From the NCBI GenBank assembly GCA_019912395.1, contig JAIOIH010000026.1, positions 20,812 to 84,811 on the forward strand: a DNA stretch of 64,000 bases, given 5' to 3'. Under the pieces are notes generated by a model, which made no database searches, had not been told where the DNA came from, and saw only the letters and a list, made by a program, of their open reading frames with translations. Shown here one piece after another: positions 28,202 through 42,822 of the stretch. The translations under genes and the position numbers were made by a program. The DNA comes from Flavobacteriales bacterium (GTDB taxonomy: Bacteria; Bacteroidota; Bacteroidia; Flavobacteriales_F; PHOS-HE28). Numbering within the stretch: the stretch's first letter is position 1; each line of letters begins with the position of its first letter.

Positions 28202-29911
28202 TCATTCATGGGCGGCTCGTAGTTGAGCAAAGGCCTCATTCACCAACGCGCTACCTCGAAGGTTGGCCAATGTGGGCGACAGGGAATAGCGCGTACCCTT
28301 AAGCTTTCCACTGGAGGTCACAACGCGGTCTTCAATGAGGCGCTGGAGAACACTGCGCAACTGACTGCGTGAAAGCACTGCTTCCATGACCGGTGCTAGT
28401 TCTCCGATCTTCTTGTCCCCATCCTGTAAGGCAACGATGATCGGTTCGATCTCGTATGTGATGTACCGCTTGCCGATCCGCAAGCCATCGCTGACCATCT
28501 GATAGTACTCGTCGTGTAACTGGTATCGCTTCGCAGAGTGGTGCGGCTTGGTGACCAAGCCGATCGCCAGCAACTGGTCCACGATCGGTTGGTTCAAGCT
28601 TTGGAACATGCTGTTCCGGATCTTGCAGAGCGTGATGATCTGTTCCACTCCCAACTTCGGTTCCTTGTCGCTCAGCTGATAGCGATTGATGAACACATGA
28701 AAGGCTTTGTCTATGACTGTACAGGAGAGTGACAGGGTTACTTGAAACGGGTCCGAGGCGCTGTAGTCAGGCTCTGCCTTGCCTTCTGAAAGCGTGATTG
28801 AGAAAATCTTGTCCACACCTTGGCCGCTGCGCTCCACGAGACCGGTCTTCTCCATCACCTCGGTCATCAGGCGGCTACGCGGGGTGCTGCTGACGGTAAG
28901 CAGGTTCTCCAGCGTAACGCCCTTCGGGAATCCTCCTGGGTTGTTGACCACGATCCGCTCTGGATACTGCTTCACCACAACTTCGCTCTGAATGGTGTAG
29001 TCCCGGTGAGCCACAGCGTTCAACAGCGCCTCTCGGATTACCGATTCGTTCAGGCTGAAGATGTCGAAGATGTACGAGCCGAACTGAACCGGGGTTTTCC
29101 GATTCAGCCGTGGGTCATTGATGGCATCCCATACAAGATCGATCACCTTGTACACCGGACCTTCGAAGACATCACGAGAATCGTGATGGATCTGTGTGTC
29201 CTCATTGCGGAACTCACGGATGATCCTGCTCTGTGGAAGATGCTGCCCTATGGCTTCCACCTTGCCAAGCAGGATGAGTGCTGCATAAGTCAGCCCTTGT
29301 GCGGTCGAAAGTCCGAGGTCGCTCAGTATCTGCTCGAGGCTGAGCGTCGCAAAAGCCGGGTTCTTCTGCTTCTTTGCATAGGCGGCCTTCATGCGCTCCA
29401 CGGCTTCAAGGTCAAGGTCGCTGATGGTGAGGCCTCTGCAGATCTTTGCGGAGAAGTCTGGCTCTTGCTCAGATAATACGCTCAGCAGTTCGTCATCGGA
29501 CATCGGCCTTAGGCTATCGCCGGTCCGCATCAGAGCAACTCCCTCGAACTTCAAGGTCTTGCCTATTGGTCGGGGCGGTACCTTGAAGATCACTACACGG
29601 TTGACCCCTTCGAACAGCTCGCTTATGTGCACCCGCATCCGGTGGTGCTGGTAGATGGCATCTTCCATTTCGCCAACCTTCCTAAGACCGAACTCTGATC
29701 CAACGACTTCATGTGGCCATGCGTTGGTCATTCCCAGGACCAGCATTCCACCGCCTTCGTTCGCCAACGCTGCTACATAACCCAACACGCATTTACGTCG
29801 CTCACCGGGGTCAGCATGACTGCTGCCATTGAAGGGAAAGTTCCGCTTGGCCTCCTTAAACTCAACGCGGTCCTCTGACTCTTTCAGAAGCTTTAGCTGC
29901 TCAATGGTCAT
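28202..29911 (-). CDS. AlbA_2 (Schlafen-like) + HATPase_c_4 putative DNA-binding ATP-binding protein. This family is often mis-annotated as RecG-like.
   Basis: Trimmed to MTIEQLKLLKESEDRVEFKEAKRNFPF (AlbA_2 N-terminus). Central NAVAHRDYT motif of HATPase_c_4. C-terminal winged-helix-like region. Visibly lower GC and A/T-ending codons compared with flanking genes. Confidence 0.7.
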   Translation of the reverse strand: MTIEQLKLLKESEDRVEFKEAKRNFPFNGSSHADPGERRKCVLGYVAALANEGGGMLVLGMTNAWPHEVVGSEFGLRKVGEMEDAIYQHHRMRVHISELFEGVNRVVIFKVPPRPIGKTLKFEGVALMRTGDSLRPMSDDELLSVLSEQEPDFSAKICRGLTISDLDLEAVERMKAAYAKKQKNPAFATLSLEQILSDLGLSTAQGLTYAALILLGKVEAIGQHLPQSRIIREFRNEDTQIHHDSRDVFEGPVYKVIDLVWDAINDPRLNRKTPVQFGSYIFDIFSLNESVIREALLNAVAHRDYTIQSEVVVKQYPERIVVNNPGGFPKGVTLENLLTVSSTPRSRLMTEVMEKTGLVERSGQGVDKIFSITLSEGKAEPDYSASDPFQVTLSLSCTVIDKAFHVFINRYQLSDKEPKLGVEQIITLCKIRNSMFQSLNQPIVDQLLAIGLVTKPHHSAKRYQLHDEYYQMVSDGLRIGKRYITYEIEPIIVALQDGDKKIGELAPVMEAVLSRSQLRSVLQRLIEDRVVTSSGKLKGTRYSLSPTLANLRGSALVNEAFAQLRAAHE

Positions 29912-30050
29912 GCGCAATAGGTGTTTCGCGTGAGCGATTGAAGCGGAAAGCCCACAGCGAGGAACGAGCGAGGACTTGCAGCGGAAAGCGCGACGGCGAG
30001 TCTTCGAGCCGGCACGCCCAAACAACTAACGCTATGTTTCACCGCGTTCA

Positions 30051-38550: not shown

Positions 38551-39762
38551 TCAGACGCTGCCCCCCGCCGCGTAATCCGCGAGGTACTTGAAAGGTCCGG
38601 TGAGCTTACCCCCCTTGGCGATGGTGGCCCGGTCGATCATTCCCTCGCCATCATCCCCGGTGAGATGGGGCAGCACGAAGGTCATCAGGTCGCGCCCGAA
38701 CGATTTCGATGAATCACGCGGGAGCTCGCAAGGCAGGTTGTCCACGGACATCACCGTGATGCTTCCCGGCTTGCCCACCGGGCATTCCTTCTCCGTGGCG
38801 GGGTCATATCCGAAGAACGGGTCGGCGATGGTGCTGGCTCGCAACGTACTGTCGATCGGCCCGCCGATATCGCAACTTATGTCGGCAACCACGCGCAGCT
38901 TGATGTCGGGATCCCTCAGGTCTTCGGCGGAAAGGATCTTCGGCCCGCGGGCATCCCAGAAATGGCAGGCGATGTAGATCTGCGCACGCTTGATGAAGGG
39001 GAGGAATTCCGCTCGGTGCCCACGGGGGTCGGCATGGAAGGCGGCCCGGTCGAAGGGCTCTCCATCATCCCGGACGTAGAGGTCCGCGCTTCCGAGGATC
39101 GTATACACCGGATGGTCGAACGTGTGCTGAAGAAAGTCGTTCGGAGATACGTTGATCACACCGGCGCGGTCCAGGGTCTCCATGGCTCCATGGCCGACGC
39201 GCCCCGTCCCGGTGAGCACGATGCGAAGATCCTTCGGCAATTGGACCGCAGCCAAGTGCAGGTCCATCTCGGCGCGATCATGGCAGGCATTGGCGGACTT
39301 CAACAATGGACCTTCGGTGGTGACTTGCCAAGCGCGAACAGCGTTGTACGCACCCACCACGCCGGCCCATTTCCCGAAGGCCAGTACCCGTTGTCCCTTC
39401 GTGTTCGTGAGCAGTTCATGGTCGATCAACGTGATCCGTCGGTCCAGCACGGTATGGAGCAATTTGGCGTTGTGCGGCTGCTGCTTGATGGTATGGGAGA
39501 AGAAGAGGTAGGCCTTGTCCGCCATCAACATGTCCAACGGGACCTCCTTCACACCGATGATCAGGTCGCGGTCCGTGAGGTCCTCGGTGACACGCACGTT
39601 CTGTGCCGTGTACTCCGCATCGGTGTATGCGCGGACGGGACTGCGCTGCACGGCGATGTCGATACCTTGGAGCATGGCCTCATGGCACTGCTTGGGCGTA
39701 AGCGGAACGCGGCGATCGGGCGGTGCCTTGCCTTCACGGATGATGCCTATCTTCTTGAACAT
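38551..39762 (-). CDS. Alanine-dehydrogenase/PNT-fold NAD(P) oxidoreductase (saccharopine dehydrogenase-like)
   Basis: Trimmed to MFKKIGIIREGKAPPDRRVPLTPKQ (AlaDh/PNT N-terminal domain). Rossmann VLTGTGRVGHGAMETL. About 403 aa. Confidence 0.65.
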   Translation of the reverse strand: MFKKIGIIREGKAPPDRRVPLTPKQCHEAMLQGIDIAVQRSPVRAYTDAEYTAQNVRVTEDLTDRDLIIGVKEVPLDMLMADKAYLFFSHTIKQQPHNAKLLHTVLDRRITLIDHELLTNTKGQRVLAFGKWAGVVGAYNAVRAWQVTTEGPLLKSANACHDRAEMDLHLAAVQLPKDLRIVLTGTGRVGHGAMETLDRAGVINVSPNDFLQHTFDHPVYTILGSADLYVRDDGEPFDRAAFHADPRGHRAEFLPFIKRAQIYIACHFWDARGPKILSAEDLRDPDIKLRVVADISCDIGGPIDSTLRASTIADPFFGYDPATEKECPVGKPGSITVMSVDNLPCELPRDSSKSFGRDLMTFVLPHLTGDDGEGMIDRATIAKGGKLTGPFKYLADYAAGGSV

Positions 39763-39927
39763 GGAGTGAATAAGGGTGCGCGAATGTAGAATTTGCTGCC
39801 GAGGCGTTCTCAATTGAAAACGGCTGGTGGCAGGTGACCGGGGAAATGCTGCCGCCGGTCACCATTCACGGATCTGGCTCCGGATGCCGTATCTTTGCAG
39901 TGTTCCTTGAAAAGCACTGCCCACATT

Positions 39928-40322
39928 GGGGCCGACATGGTTTCGACAGCGGCTACGTAGTGCGTGTAAGCATGCAGAGCATTGAGGATGACGCTCTTTA
40001 AACTCGATCTTCAAGCCTTAACCGGCAACACTGAGTACGCACTTGCTGCCTAATAGCCCAAGGCTATGAAGCTTCACCCCGTGAACAACAGTAGCGGGGG
40101 CAAGTACCCCTCGGGGAGGCCCGCAACCCTCCTTCCCGGCCCAGGGGTATCATCATGGGAAGCTGGTCAGCGCGGTGGTCCGAAGCGCTGATGAGACAAC
40201 AGGACCTAAGTTGTCAGTAGGGTGTCCTTTCCCGGCTGGCTCTCGAAAACCAACGAAGGAAGAAGCATGTGGAAAGCTCGTGGTACGGTCGTTTGGACGA
40301 GGGTTCGAATCCCTCCGGCTCC
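39928..40322 (+). ncRNA. ssrA: tmRNA (ssrA)
   Basis: 5' end GGGGCCGACATGGTTTCGACAG. Tag reading frame GGC AAC ACT GAG TAC GCA CTT GCT GCC TAA TAG gives GNTEYALAA with double stop (about 40024-40056). 3' tRNA-like domain GGACGAGGGTTCGAATCCCTCCGGCTCCA. Acceptor pairing has a G3:U70 wobble, the Ala identity element. Confidence 0.9.
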
Positions 40323-40330
40323 ACTCGCCT

Positions 40331-40374
40331 CGCCTTCGCATCCCCAACCGCGCCAGCGGTTGGGGATGCGAAGG
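40331..40374 (+). terminator. Intrinsic terminator after ssrA
   Basis: Perfect 19-bp inverted repeat GCCTTCGCATCCCCAACCG / CGGTTGGGGATGCGAAGGC with a 6-nt loop, followed by a T-rich stretch (GGTATTTTCATTTTC). Confidence 0.7.
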
Positions 40375-40471
40375 CGGGCAGTGGTATTTTCATTTTCTAC
40401 GAAGCCTGAACGGAATGCGCATCTTTCGTTCCGCTTCGCCAACGTCTTACTGACAAACGCCATTTCCATCG

Positions 40472-40717
40472 ATGGACCTGCCGTACTATGTGTACATTCT
40501 CCTTTGTGCAGATCAGCGCTACTATGTGGGTTGCACGAGTGTTAGGTTGAAACGATTGGCACGACATGAGAAGGGCTTGGTTACCTCCACAATCGGAAGG
40601 CTTCCAGTTATCTGTGTGTCCACTATCGGCTTCATTGATAAGTCGAAGGCATTTGCATTTGAGAACTATTTGAAATCCGGATCAGGGCGCGCCTTCATGG
40701 GGCGTCACTTGATATAG
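40472..40717 (+). CDS. GIY-YIG nuclease family small protein
   Basis: 81 aa. N-terminus YYVYILLCADQRYYVGCTS...RLARHEKG fits the GIY-YIG core. Lower GC than its surroundings. Confidence 0.7.
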   Translation: MDLPYYVYILLCADQRYYVGCTSVRLKRLARHEKGLVTSTIGRLPVICVSTIGFIDKSKAFAFENYLKSGSGRAFMGRHLI

Positions 40718-40768
40718 ATCGGGATGCTCGCGCGGAAATCGCTTCCGCATACGCACAGTACTACGCCT

Positions 40769-41338
40769 TCAAAAGCCGATCCCAACGCCAGCACTGAAGA
40801 TGGGGCCCGTGGCGTAATAGATGCTGTTCGGATCCTGAAGCACCTCGAACAAAACTTGCAGATAAAAGGAACTGCTCGAACTGATCGGTTGCACATAGCC
40901 TGCACCCACCAGCAAGTGTGGTACCCAGATCCGTCCCAAGTCATTATTGAAGTTGTAGTAGGACTCGGTGTTCATATGCAGGAATTCCGCATGCAGAAAG
41001 GCCTGCTCGATCACCCGATATCGTGTGAAGACCCGGTAGCCGTACGAACTGAGCTCAAAAGGGGGTGAATAGCGGTTGTCCTGGTAATAGGTATAGCTGG
41101 GACCGAGACCGGCTGACACCTTGCGCGGCCGGTCCAAATAGATGCCCACCACCGGATCCAACTGAACGGCCGTGATGGTGCCGAAGCTCAATCCGATCCC
41201 TCCGCCGAACCACAGGCGGTCCTTGAAGGGAATGGGCTTCTCGGTCGGCTTATCCTGCACGTAGGCCGTACTGTCCTGCGCTTGTAGCAGTGGTGCCACC
41301 GAGAACAGAAACACAAGAGCGATCAAGTGTCGGATCAT
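40769..41338 (-). CDS. Secreted / outer-membrane protein (beta-barrel-like), hypothetical
   Basis: Trimmed to the signal peptide MIRHLIALVFLFSVAPLLQAQD. Alternating aromatic/glycine strands (WFGGGIGLSFG...GAGYVQP...ATGPIFSAGVGIGF). Confidence 0.4.
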   Translation of the reverse strand: MIRHLIALVFLFSVAPLLQAQDSTAYVQDKPTEKPIPFKDRLWFGGGIGLSFGTITAVQLDPVVGIYLDRPRKVSAGLGPSYTYYQDNRYSPPFELSSYGYRVFTRYRVIEQAFLHAEFLHMNTESYYNFNNDLGRIWVPHLLVGAGYVQPISSSSSFYLQVLFEVLQDPNSIYYATGPIFSAGVGIGF

Positions 41339-42822
41339 GGCGCCGAAGGTAAGCGGGACGTTCCCTGCGGACGACTTTCGTACAGCTTCCAGACCGGTTT
41401 GGCATCCTCCCAGGCGTACCATTCCAGTGCGATCTGCTTCCACCGGGGCAGTGCATTGCCCACCTCGGACCAGTACTGGCCTTCCATGCTTTCGCAGTTC
41501 GGCCTAGGCTGGTCGGTCACCAACAATTCGATAGTGCCGGGAGATCGGGACATCAGGTTGCACGGTGCGTCGATCAAGGTGTCGGAGGCGGTTGGGGACA
41601 GGTAGAAACGCGGGATCCGAATATCCCAAACGGTCGTGTTGTCCGCTACATAGTTCAGGCGAACGACCTCACCGGGGAAGTGGCTCCGGACCAGTTTCGC
41701 CAGGCGAGTGCGTCCGCTTCCGGCCGGAGCGAGGATCACCGCCACCAGCGCTGCCGAATTGATCACGATCACTATGGCGAGCAATGGTTTGAGCACACCC
41801 GCAGGTACGGCGCTCCACACCTTGCGTTCACGCCAAACGGCCCACGCTTGGATCAGCATCAGGGGCAGCAGGTCCGCAAGCGGATGGAGGAAGCGGAGGT
41901 CCTTGTGCGCCAAGGCCAAATGCAGCACCAGAAAGGGGACGGTCACCCAGACGAGGATGTGCTTCGGCCTGAACGCCAATAGCGTCGCGAATGCGGCGAG
42001 GATCGCGAGGCCGAATGGGGGGGTGGCGAACTTCACCACCCAAGCGGGATAGTACCACCAGGCATAGGAAATGAAGCGATGGTCGCCGGTACCTGCGATC
42101 CCTTGGCGGAGGTAATTCCATGCAGTGATCACGGGCTCGTTGTAGTACCAACTATCCAGGGCAATACCCGCCAACACCATCACGGCGATGCCGATGAGGA
42201 ACTGAAGGATGCTTTGGAGGTGTTCCCGCTTCACCACGGCCAACCAGAGCACGATGCCCAAGGCCATGGCCAAGGTGGGCGGGCGGCAGAGAAAGGCCAA
42301 GCCCAACCAGAGCCCGCAGCGCAGGTGCCGCCCAGCGCGGTCTTCCCCGGAAAGCAACGCGGCCAAGGCCAACAGCACGAAAAGCCCGGACCAGGTCTCG
42401 CCAGTGAAGCGCACATGGAGGAACGGCAGGAACCACAAAAGGAACGAGAGCAGCAGGAAGGGTGTCCAAAGGTTTTCCGGCACCCTGTGCCGCACGGCTT
42501 TCACGAACGTGTACACGGCCAACAGCGCTGCCAACGCCGTGATCAACCGCAACAGGAAGGCCAGCACGAACGGTGAGGTCACGCCCACCATTGCGGCCAT
42601 CTTGAAGATCACCAAGCAAGCCGATGGCAACAGCGCGGACCGGATGTGCGCCGCATATTCCCAAGGCAGCCCGCTCACCGGCTGGTGCCCGAGCCGGGCC
42701 TCCGCGAAGGCGATCACCTGGTAGTGCTCATCGGCGCTCTGGAAACCCGTGCTGAACCAAGCCGCAACAAGATGCACGACAAGGGCCGCAAGCAGGATCC
42801 AACGGGTGCGAGTGCTGAGCAT
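41335..42822 (-). CDS. Polytopic membrane GT-C-fold glycosyltransferase (mannosyltransferase-like, PIG-B/Alg9/GT22-type)
   Basis: 495 aa, about 11 TM helices. N-terminal SADEHYQVIAFAE loop motif. C-terminal soluble domain. The stop overlaps the downstream gene start by 4 nt. Confidence 0.55.
   Translation of the reverse strand: MLSTRTRWILLAALVVHLVAAWFSTGFQSADEHYQVIAFAEARLGHQPVSGLPWEYAAHIRSALLPSACLVIFKMAAMVGVTSPFVLAFLLRLITALAALLAVYTFVKAVRHRVPENLWTPFLLLSFLLWFLPFLHVRFTGETWSGLFVLLALAALLSGEDRAGRHLRCGLWLGLAFLCRPPTLAMALGIVLWLAVVKREHLQSILQFLIGIAVMVLAGIALDSWYYNEPVITAWNYLRQGIAGTGDHRFISYAWWYYPAWVVKFATPPFGLAILAAFATLLAFRPKHILVWVTVPFLVLHLALAHKDLRFLHPLADLLPLMLIQAWAVWRERKVWSAVPAGVLKPLLAIVIVINSAALVAVILAPAGSGRTRLAKLVRSHFPGEVVRLNYVADNTTVWDIRIPRFYLSPTASDTLIDAPCNLMSRSPGTIELLVTDQPRPNCESMEGQYWSEVGNALPRWKQIALEWYAWEDAKPVWKLYESRPQGTSRLPSAP

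Follow-up and report, generated by a model that had tools for sequence, protein, structure and literature searches.

Nucleases of the GIY-YIG superfamily, free-standing genes encoding them and the use of tRNA genes as targets by mobile DNA are all already known. The present study concerns a 64-kb stretch of DNA from a Flavobacteriales bacterium (contig JAIOIH010000026.1; the whole analyzed stretch is called the window in the following), in which ssrA, the gene for transfer-messenger RNA (tmRNA), is followed on the same strand by hairpins rich in guanine and cytosine (GC) and by a stand-alone gene for an 81-amino-acid (aa) GIY-YIG nuclease. Positions 39890-40717 can be read as one unit, consisting of the ssrA promoter, ssrA, a structured leader and a minimal GIY-YIG gene, and comparison with other loci indicates that this unit belongs to a widespread class of cassettes of ~300-400 bp, which start at the position of nucleotide A76 of an RNA gene and lie on its strand. 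The cassette class is seemingly undescribed, as a minimal nuclease combined with a conserved structured leader and joined precisely to the CCA end of an RNA gene was not found in Rfam, in four protein-family libraries or in the literature, most subscription journals being outside that search.

The closest described proteins are those of the UPF0213/YhbQ type, which we take to be COG2827. They are single-domain GIY-YIG proteins of 80-100 aa sharing the catalytic-type Tyr, Tyr, Arg, His and Glu with the window protein, and two of them, 1zg2 (BH0048) and 1ywl (EF2693), are its best matches (profile E 1e-13 and 3e-8; ranks 1 and 2 in Foldseek). Their solved structures are structural-genomics entries whose titles assign no function, and no report of a tRNA or tmRNA linkage of UPF0213 proteins was found in the literature. 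In contrast, the window subfamily features the C-terminal signature FEKYLKSGSGRAF, a tie to tRNA/tmRNA 3' ends and a structured leader. Homing endonucleases of the T4 Seg/I-TevI kind resemble the locus in that a GIY-YIG gene of patchy occurrence and lower GC lies between host genes; however, they possess a DNA-binding domain of more than 100 aa, whereas the window protein is predicted to be an 81-aa catalytic domain alone, and the window family is, unlike the phage enzymes, nearly absent from phages. Translation of I-TevI is held back by a hairpin sequestering its ribosome-binding site, which parallels the GAAGGAG finding described below. Slx1 is the nearest functionally characterized fold neighbor (TM-score 0.65-0.70 on the query); it acts on branched and stem-loop DNA, and by analogy a role of the minimal domain at hairpin repeats may be envisaged. 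Slx1 differs in its added RING/zinc-finger domain, its need for Slx4, its eukaryotic origin and the lack of a tRNA linkage, the identity being 24-28%.

Among DNA elements, repetitive extragenic palindromic (REP) sequences with their REP-associated tyrosine transposases likewise combine GC-rich hairpin repeats with one small nuclease-type gene, include gene-less copies and are chromosomal. Their enzyme is of the HUH/Y1 and not of the GIY-YIG type, and REPs are scattered genome-wide, whereas the 12-mer GCGAAGGCGGGC occurs once in the 64-kb window and the cassette repeats are located at tRNA/tmRNA 3' ends in one orientation. Integrase islands use the same target genes and the same gene end, and RNA-gene 3'-end repeats flank the cassette in two loci (L162 and L115); in contrast to such islands, the cassette carries no integrase, is only ~0.4 kb long and joins at the CCA end, not inside the T-arm/acceptor core. 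A Rho-independent terminator would share the GC-rich hairpin directly after the RNA gene and, in the window, the T-rich tract, but the hairpin comprises 21-28 pairs compared to the usual 5-12, and the homologous element lacks a T-run in most relatives. The features of the window locus are as follows:

39890-39897, plus strand: Bacteroidota-type -7 box TATCTTTG (TAnnTTTG) from a motif search, putative promoter of ssrA
39928-40324, plus strand: ssrA (tmRNA) gene, from ARAGORN and Rfam RF00023
40024-40056, plus strand: tag reading frame GNTEYALAA followed by TAA TAG, from ARAGORN (positions 97-129 of the gene)
40322-40383, plus strand: hairpin A, a 21-bp perfect core plus GCC/GGC and CACU/AGUG pairs, with two bulges
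40385-40397, plus strand: T-rich tract TATTTTCATTTTC after hairpin A, terminator-like on reading the sequence
40400-40438, plus strand: second hairpin, CGAAGCC...CGCTTCG, at the position of the relatives' hairpin B, from the minimum-free-energy fold
40472-40717, plus strand: stand-alone 81-aa GIY-YIG nuclease gene, from Pfam PF01541, alignment and AlphaFold2

To evaluate the neighborhood of such genes in general, JGI metagenomes were scanned with an alignment of 60 subfamily sequences, which yielded 80 loci, many of them of low GC and resembling the Candidate Phyla Radiation (CPR). Of these, 65 extend far enough upstream to be informative, and 58 of them contain a co-oriented tRNA or tmRNA gene at most 500 nt before the GIY-YIG gene (median gap 102 nt), while an opposite-strand RNA gene was found upstream in a single locus and downstream in none. 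The upstream genes encode tRNA-Ser (42 loci, all anticodons), tmRNA (8), tRNA-Trp (3), tRNA-Asp (2) and tRNA-Tyr, tRNA-Ala and tRNA-Glu (one each), and most of the seven exceptions keep a tRNA or tmRNA 3'-end fragment at the junction. The linkage is thus stricter than implied by the initial annotation, which had remarked that small GIY-YIG genes frequently sit beside tRNA or tmRNA genes. The junction itself is constant, being composed of the discriminator base, CC and then TTCGC (...N-CC/TTCGC). Since this join is invariable and approximately half of the other tRNA genes in the same loci encode the full CCA, the cassette begins where A76 would be. In a WWE3 bacterium, for example, tRNA-Ser(GCU) is followed after 69 nt by the GIY-YIG gene, and in a Chlorobi metagenome-assembled genome (MAG; L172) ssrA is followed by three tandem cassettes. 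As deduced from these sequences, the cassette class occurs in Bacteroidota, in a Chlorobi-labeled MAG and in CPR bacteria. A chance neighborhood, namely an ordinary small gene and an ordinary terminator lying after ssrA, would be compatible with the window taken alone, the hairpin of which gave no significant match to the covariance model introduced below. However, the same oriented adjacency in 58 of 65 loci, the conservation of junction and leader across phyla and the unrelated plain terminators after ssrA in relatives lacking the gene leave hardly any weight for this explanation.

The second conserved part of the cassette is a structured leader, which was found in most loci by the covariance model R1 at the RNA-gene 3' end and in the same orientation. 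Its compact form of ~60 nt reads TTCGCY-CGCC-GAA-GC ... GCTWCG-GCGGAC-NNN-GTCCGC ... GC-GAA-GGMG-RGC and folds into an outer stem (P1) with a 3x3 GAA/GAA internal loop around a tri-loop hairpin; the extended layout has two adjacent hairpins, A and B. The structure was recovered by RNAalifold, the nucleotides of the internal loop are near-invariant, and the P1 3' strand is exactly complementary to the junction sequence CCGCC+TTCGC. In the alignment of 29 full-length R1 matches, which was fitted to R1 and includes 16 sequences used for its training, 97.9% of the cells are paired and 6 of 13 pairs show compensatory changes (27 cells); none of 500 shuffles reached the covariation score, and slid controls collapsed. 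The alignment also contains 18 G-U cells (and few non-standard cells, untyped), which suggests that the leader structure is selected on the transcribed strand. A table of hairpin A in tmRNA loci obtained by regular-expression parsing was mis-registered on the tmRNA 3' end and was not used as evidence. Rfam searches of the window and 20 loci, at gathering and E-value thresholds, returned tRNA, tmRNA and generic hairpin noise, but no leader family. Self-cleaving ribozymes (hammerhead, hatchet, pistol and twister-sister) were considered for the leader and found no support in Rfam.

The leader also appears to be connected with expression of the nuclease gene. In 13 of the 21 loci whose P1 3' strand is positioned 8-16 nt ahead of the start codon, the sequence of this strand is GAAGGAG, which introduces a G-A mismatch into P1, whereas at distances of at least 20 nt GAAGGCG was found in all 13 loci and GAAGGAG in none (Fisher p = 2e-4). 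Because of this dependence on distance, the stem of the compact form appears to hold the ribosome-binding site. The compact-form hairpin fills the entire spacer of 60-80 nt and leaves no room for a promoter. A promoter and terminator consensus scan of positions 39500-41200 returned zero sites; its sigma-70 pattern is ill-suited to Bacteroidota, and the TAnnTTTG box was therefore searched instead. It is present once per locus in 13 of the 16 loci in which the gene follows ssrA (Bacteroidota), mostly 21-39 nt upstream of ssrA, and none was found between ssrA and the GIY-YIG gene in the 16 loci, the window included. Since the spacer is full in the compact forms and the lone TAnnTTTG lies upstream of ssrA, co-transcription is the economical inference, and the GIY-YIG gene is presumably transcribed together with the RNA gene.

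In the window, the tmRNA gene is the single RNA gene called by ARAGORN across the 64 kb, and the full RF00023 model (positions 1-374) matches at 39928-40326 with 135.6 bits (gathering score 47; E 6.6e-53), by which the tmRNA recognized in the initial annotation was confirmed. The tag proposed there was also recovered by ARAGORN, its codons being GGC AAC ACT GAG TAC GCA CTT GCT GCC TAA TAG; relatives encode GEADYALAA, GDNSYALAA and other tags. The features quoted earlier for this gene are likewise all readable, namely the 5' end GGGGCCGACATGGTTTCGACAG (start GGGGCCGACATGG...), the tRNA-Ala-like acceptor stem GGGGCCG/CGGCTCC with its G3:U pair, and the T-arm GGTTCGAATCC located at 40302. The gene ends with ...GGCTCCAC and does not encode CCA.

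Directly behind this end, the junction reads CTCCAC/TCGCCTCGCCTTCGC, and the internal loop known from the relatives is paired away. The perfect arms of hairpin A comprise 21 nt each (40331-40351 and 40356-40376, loop GCCA) and not 19 bp as originally stated, although the hairpin does lie immediately after ssrA; its folding energy is -61.7 kcal/mol (z = -9.5), and none of 200 shuffles folds as well. The hairpin had been described as a strong terminator, and a T-rich tract does follow the extended stem, but this stem is much longer than usual and the terminator scan gave no call at hairpin A, so that this designation is interpretation only, and the hairpin most probably represents a derived conserved element. 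It aligns directly with the hairpins of two relatives (L008 and L011), from which it differs by the change of GAA to TTC and by changes in the apical stem. The 5' side of the loop now reads TTC and is exactly complementary to the 3' GAA; this accounts both for the perfect 21-bp stem and for the low score of R1 on the window hairpin (14.7 bits, E 0.23, below significance). Intermediate forms score 22-24 bits in L008 and L011 and 36-44 bits in L013, L091 and L009. Judging from this series, the window hairpin is a derived form of the conserved GAA/GAA element, its membership resting on the intermediates in relatives.

A parallel case was observed in L018, with TCC/GGA in the copy next to ssrA compared to GAA/GGA in the distal copy. 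Watson-Crick pairs have thus replaced the internal loop on two separate occasions, once in the lineage of the window (TTC) and once in that of L018 (TCC/GGA). Hairpin-templated correction of a quasi-palindrome would yield such a conversion in both. No repeat was found to the right of the GIY-YIG gene and no further cassette copy in the window. A genome-wide REP-like repeat was rejected for the window, given the single copy of GCGAAGGCGGGC and the lack of a significant copy when R1 was run with filters off.

The GIY-YIG gene starts 147 nt after the end of ssrA (40324 to 40472), and its identification in the initial annotation as an 81-aa GIY-YIG reading frame is supported by a Pfam PF01541 match above the curated cut-off (37.8 bits compared to 22.6, E 2.4e-9, residues 5-72). 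AlphaFold2 modeled a bare GIY-YIG domain of beta-beta-alpha-beta-alpha topology with high confidence (pLDDT 96.1), the predicted elements being strands 5-11, 17-22 and 47-54 and helices 25-33, 57-68 and 70-80. According to Foldseek, the nearest structures are the two UPF0213 proteins named above, then the Slx1 nuclease domain and the UvrC N-terminal domain. Residues Y8, Y18, G20, R28, H32 and E64 are invariant in the 60-sequence alignment and intact in the window protein; the invariant Tyr, Tyr, Arg, His and Glu presumably map onto the catalytic residues of I-TevI and UvrC. The C-terminal signature FEKYLKSGSGRAF takes the form AFAFENYLKSGSGRAFMGRHLI in the window, and NCBIfam has no name for the subfamily defined by it. 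An exhaustive search of 1.84 billion cluster representatives yielded 1316 clusters at a threshold of E <= 1e-3, of which 67 reached E <= 1e-10. The ratio of nonsynonymous to synonymous substitution rates (dN/dS) of the gene ranges between 0.03 and 0.16, with saturated synonymous sites and nonsynonymous divergence (pN) of ~0.1. Purifying selection, invariant catalytic-type residues and the confident fold together indicate that the protein is functional. Gene callers often extend the open reading frames (ORFs) of the subfamily upstream through the stop-free GC-rich leader, which produces spurious N-terminal extensions (e.g., ...LRFAVAFGEGELRL...KLRRDKS), as in P0002 (107 aa), P0019, P0021, P0029 and many cluster representatives.

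The lower GC noted initially for the region after ssrA was reproduced by windowed GC analysis, with values of 0.480 for the ORF and 0.490 for 40385-40770 compared to 0.598 for the window (standard deviation of 300-bp windows 0.035). At third codon positions (GC3), the ORF reaches 0.573, whereas six neighboring genes range between 0.70 and 0.87. This difference is general, as the ORF is poorer in GC than the remainder of its own locus in 66 of the 69 distinct loci compared, the mean difference being -6.3 points (p = 9e-13). The remaining 300-bp windows with a GC of at most 0.51 (at ~17.2, 25.4, 26.3, 27.9 and 53.4 kb) correspond to intergenic regions or gene ends, and neither GIY-YIG genes nor tRNAs were found in them. 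A 607-aa ORF at 28202-30025 on the minus strand shows a GC3 of 0.67, lower than that of most window genes.

Presence of the gene among relatives was followed in a scan of one genome per species anchored on the AlaDH-like protein encoded next to the locus, which gave 18 informative loci with ssrA near the AlaDH-like gene. In agreement with the variable presence considered in the initial annotation, the GIY-YIG gene follows ssrA in four of them (L011, L013, L018 and L090), one of which, L013, carries two tandem copies, and another, L090, belongs to Spongiimicrobium, its AlaDH-like protein being only 46% identical to that of the window. Among the nine closest species, three possess the gene, three a partial hairpin but no gene, and three an unrelated plain terminator; gene-less traces after ssrA comprise two hairpins in L021, a remnant in L019 and a possible remnant in L012. 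Close homologues (85, 63 and 59% identity) were detected at the same site, directly after ssrA and together with the AlaDH-like gene. Compared to the window, the GIY-YIG and AlaDH-like proteins show identities of 85 and 84% in L008, 79 and 76% in L011, 63 and 64% in L007, and 49 and 46% in L090, and across 12 carriers the GIY-YIG identity correlates with that of AlaDH (Spearman 0.48) and of tmRNA (0.68). With ~60% identity, the window protein is more similar to members of the CPR type than to the Flavobacteriaceae copy of L090 (49%). Because identity tracks AlaDH and tmRNA, dN/dS is low and the patchy presence is accompanied by remnants, these sequences indicate that the gene is old, vertically inherited, functional and repeatedly lost in the window lineage. 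The window copy looks fixed and single and is probably immobile.

These findings bear directly on the possibility that the gene is a host-beneficial accessory nuclease serving the upstream RNA gene, with both in one operon and the leader as regulatory 5' untranslated region. Such an enzyme might process the 3' trailer, or might clear DNA secondary structures or R-loops at the heavily transcribed tRNA and tmRNA genes. Its main argument is persistence, namely that the gene has been inherited vertically at a single site, has diverged as much as its AlaDH-like neighbor and shows a dN/dS of 0.03-0.16 at saturated synonymous sites; the intact catalytic-type residues, a leader whose sense strand folds in the manner of an RNA element, including G-U pairs and compensatory changes, and the near-absence of the family from phages, plasmids and viral contigs also agree with it. 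However, the gene appears to be dispensable, being absent from 14 of the 18 related Flavobacteriales ssrA loci, in some cases with remnants, and its GC stays persistently below that of the host. Several divergent copies, pseudogenes within one locus and tandem arrays are equally difficult to explain by host benefit, and for a trans-acting protein, neither an exact joining to the CCA end nor linkage with RNA genes of seven kinds would be required. Taking both sides together, we consider a host-serving role rather unlikely, though the likeliest of the rival explanations.

A different origin, insertion of an island behind ssrA, was implied in the initial annotation, which pointed to tmRNA 3' ends as classic integration sites. 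Integration at tmRNA genes is indeed well established, the GC of 40385-40770 is lowered, and the process was seen elsewhere: tmRNA 3' ends are duplicated in L019 and L024, and in L177 an integrase lies beside a 3' fragment. For the window, the expected att duplication was not found, as GGTTCGAATCCCTCCGGCTCCAC (the last 23 nt of ssrA) occurs once in the 64 kb at up to three mismatches and a blastn-short search with the last 190 nt gave no second copy. Furthermore, no tyrosine or serine integrase was found beside ssrA, the window neighbors being the AlaDH-like gene, a gene for a 189-aa hypothetical protein, GT22, isocitrate dehydrogenase (IDH) and dnaX, so that both flanks consist of syntenic housekeeping genes. 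The insert measures only ~390 bp and is conserved at the same site across the clade, down to 49-59% protein identity. The classical island was rejected on these grounds, and we regard an island or island remnant at this site as very improbable. With respect to the opposite outcome raised initially, a gene conserved at native GC in all relatives and without island boundaries, conservation and the lack of boundaries were observed, while native GC and presence in all relatives were not.

In L019, CCCCTCCGGCTCCAC occurs twice, ~100 nt apart, downstream of the tmRNA at c4486-4882; in L024, the tmRNA 3' end is repeated together with its terminator downstream of c3715-4110; and in L177 (940-2400), a tyrosine integrase abuts a tRNA/tmRNA-type 3' fragment to which a GIY-YIG cassette is attached. 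Where real islands exist at the same RNA genes (L177 and L019), they are entities separate from the cassette, which stays with the old 3' end.

In other loci, the cassette shows considerable turnover. Hairpin copies without a nuclease gene follow tRNA-Ser genes in L156, L127 and L132, and truncated or frameshifted GIY-YIG copies lie after other tRNA-Ser genes of the same locus in L127 and L164. Three to five units of hairpin A stand in tandem in L139, L167, L162 and L109, and whole cassettes are repeated in tandem in L013 (two units, period 379 nt) and L172 (three units), a new hairpin A beginning 2-7 nt behind every stop codon. The gene is flanked by direct repeats of ~90 nt in L018, of a degenerate tmRNA 3' end plus hairpin A in L115, and of 21 nt of the tmRNA 3' end in L162. 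At the fixed ssrA site, presence and absence vary between species (4 of 18), remnants and gene-less hairpins included.

The layout of repeat(s), hairpin and small nuclease gene, together with the arrays of 3-5 units, resembles a type III toxin-antitoxin system, in which the hairpin RNA would neutralize the nuclease encoded downstream and thereby make the module hard to lose without benefit to the host. The near-invariant nucleotides of the internal loop, as expected for a protein-binding site, and purifying selection over long periods are in line with such addiction. On the other hand, most loci contain a single hairpin and no array, the internal loop has been lost in the window (TTC) and in L018 (TCC/GGA) while the gene is still intact, and gene-less hairpins and lost genes are common. 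To our knowledge, characterized GIY-YIG enzymes are DNases, and PADLOC returned no match for the family. An addiction module is therefore judged improbable.

With about an even chance, the locus is instead best described as a nuclease cassette that depends on an RNA gene for its transcription and undergoes reshuffling through recombination at the hairpins it carries, a process which the nuclease may stimulate. The nuclease gene, having no promoter of its own, would be reached by transcription continuing past the 3' end of the highly expressed RNA gene, and the nuclease mRNA would be released by 3' processing of the tRNA type. The GC-rich leader hairpin would then form the 5' end of this mRNA and limit its translation, the compact forms sequestering the Shine-Dalgarno-like AAGGAG. 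The protein may be a structure-specific DNA nuclease of the UPF0213/Slx1 kind with the hairpin repeats as its substrate, at which it would stimulate recombination, and such recombination could lead to gain and loss, gene-less hairpins, direct repeats, tandem arrays and occasional transfer between lineages. Within this scheme, the window cassette would be an old, vertically inherited single copy, the first hairpin of which was converted to a perfect 21-bp palindrome resembling an ssrA terminator. A more far-reaching version, in which an 80-aa nuclease and its leader at the CCA end of tRNA-Ser or tmRNA form a minimal element that rides the tRNA precursor and propagates via its own hairpins without integrase, transposase, phage or plasmid, is proposed only tentatively. 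Together, the five explanations considered here account for most of the weight we assign, and a small remainder is left for others not listed.

The GIY-YIG family is nearly absent from phages (one weak match in 50,697 records), plasmids (none in 72,556) and IMG/VR, where the single locus has no tRNA. NCBIfam, PADLOC and PHROGs gave nothing informative, and in PHROGs one relative matched weakly and the window protein not at all. One publication predicts that Patescibacteria have been donors of GIY-YIG proteins in horizontal transfer (PMC12455944).

Several observations weigh against the reading as a self-reshuffling cassette. The near-absence from phages, plasmids and viral contigs leaves horizontal spread without an evident vehicle, and the predicted 80-aa catalytic domain comes without an obvious DNA-binding module. 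Long vertical persistence, purifying selection and a housekeeping-like rate of divergence are unusual for a purely selfish nuclease gene and fit a host-beneficial or addictive role equally well. The window's own hairpin scores below R1 significance (14.7 bits) and is linked to the class via the relatives' intermediates only. A conserved right end was not found in the 140 nt after the stop codons or in the alignment of five clade members, nor was a pair of near-identical genomes with an empty and a filled site among the loci compared. Co-transcription, nuclease activity, substrate and mobility are each inferred.

Concerning the surroundings of the cassette, the flanking order of the AlaDH-like, 189-aa hypothetical, GT22, IDH and dnaX genes is the same in metagenome contigs of the species and in relatives. 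The mechanically called 224-aa ORF at 40769-41443 (minus strand) overlaps the GT22 gene at 41335-42822, whereas metagenome gene calls give 189 aa; this protein has no Pfam or NCBIfam match, ends with ...GVGIGF, and its gene is kept beside the cassette in L008, L009 and L011. A motif resembling promoters of extracytoplasmic function (ECF) sigma factors, GGGCAAC-N16/17-CGTCAAT, is common to L012, L014, L017, L018, L019 and L094, where it stands 100-600 nt downstream of ssrA before a conserved ORF resembling tetratricopeptide repeat (TPR) proteins. It is absent in the window, where the next gene is convergent.

Further observations were made in other loci. In the WWE3 bacterium (L173-L175:2831-5216), the cassette is directly followed by a restriction-modification pair composed of an N6_N4 methyltransferase and a HinfI-family enzyme. 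In a Bacteroidota MAG (L087:7327-7672, minus strand), a GIY-YIG gene closer to the typical UPF0213 type follows tRNA-Met immediately and in the same orientation, so that the tRNA linkage may extend beyond the FEKYLKSGSGRAF subfamily. Furthermore, ARAGORN and inspection revealed CPR-like tRNA-Ser genes with the anticodon loop TT-ACT-AA, i.e., an ACU anticodon with A34, which is unusual for bacterial tRNA-Ser:

L158:240-328, tRNA-Ser with ACU anticodon
L160:1242-1327, tRNA-Ser with ACU anticodon
L126:2729-2816, tRNA-Ser with ACU anticodon
L140:3396-3483, tRNA-Ser with ACU anticodon
L127:5213-5297, tRNA-Ser with ACU anticodon
L132:207-299, tRNA-Ser with ACU anticodon

For annotation, the results mean that tRNA genes bearing a cassette do not encode A76, that a patch of low GC after ssrA does not automatically call for an island, and that the N-terminal extensions placed by gene callers through the leader are spurious. 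Structures of the UPF0213 type were solved in 2005, and the titles of the entries still carry no function. The subfamily studied here gains three handles in this respect, namely a fixed address at the CCA end, a conserved structured partner sequence, and natural variants that can be compared, including gene-less hairpins, arrays and hairpins in which the internal loop is paired away. If the cassette serves the host, it would represent an unrecognized maintenance activity at tRNA and tmRNA loci. If the cassette proves mobile, few self-propagating units in bacteria would be smaller, and it would represent a new use of tRNA genes as safe and highly transcribed landing sites.

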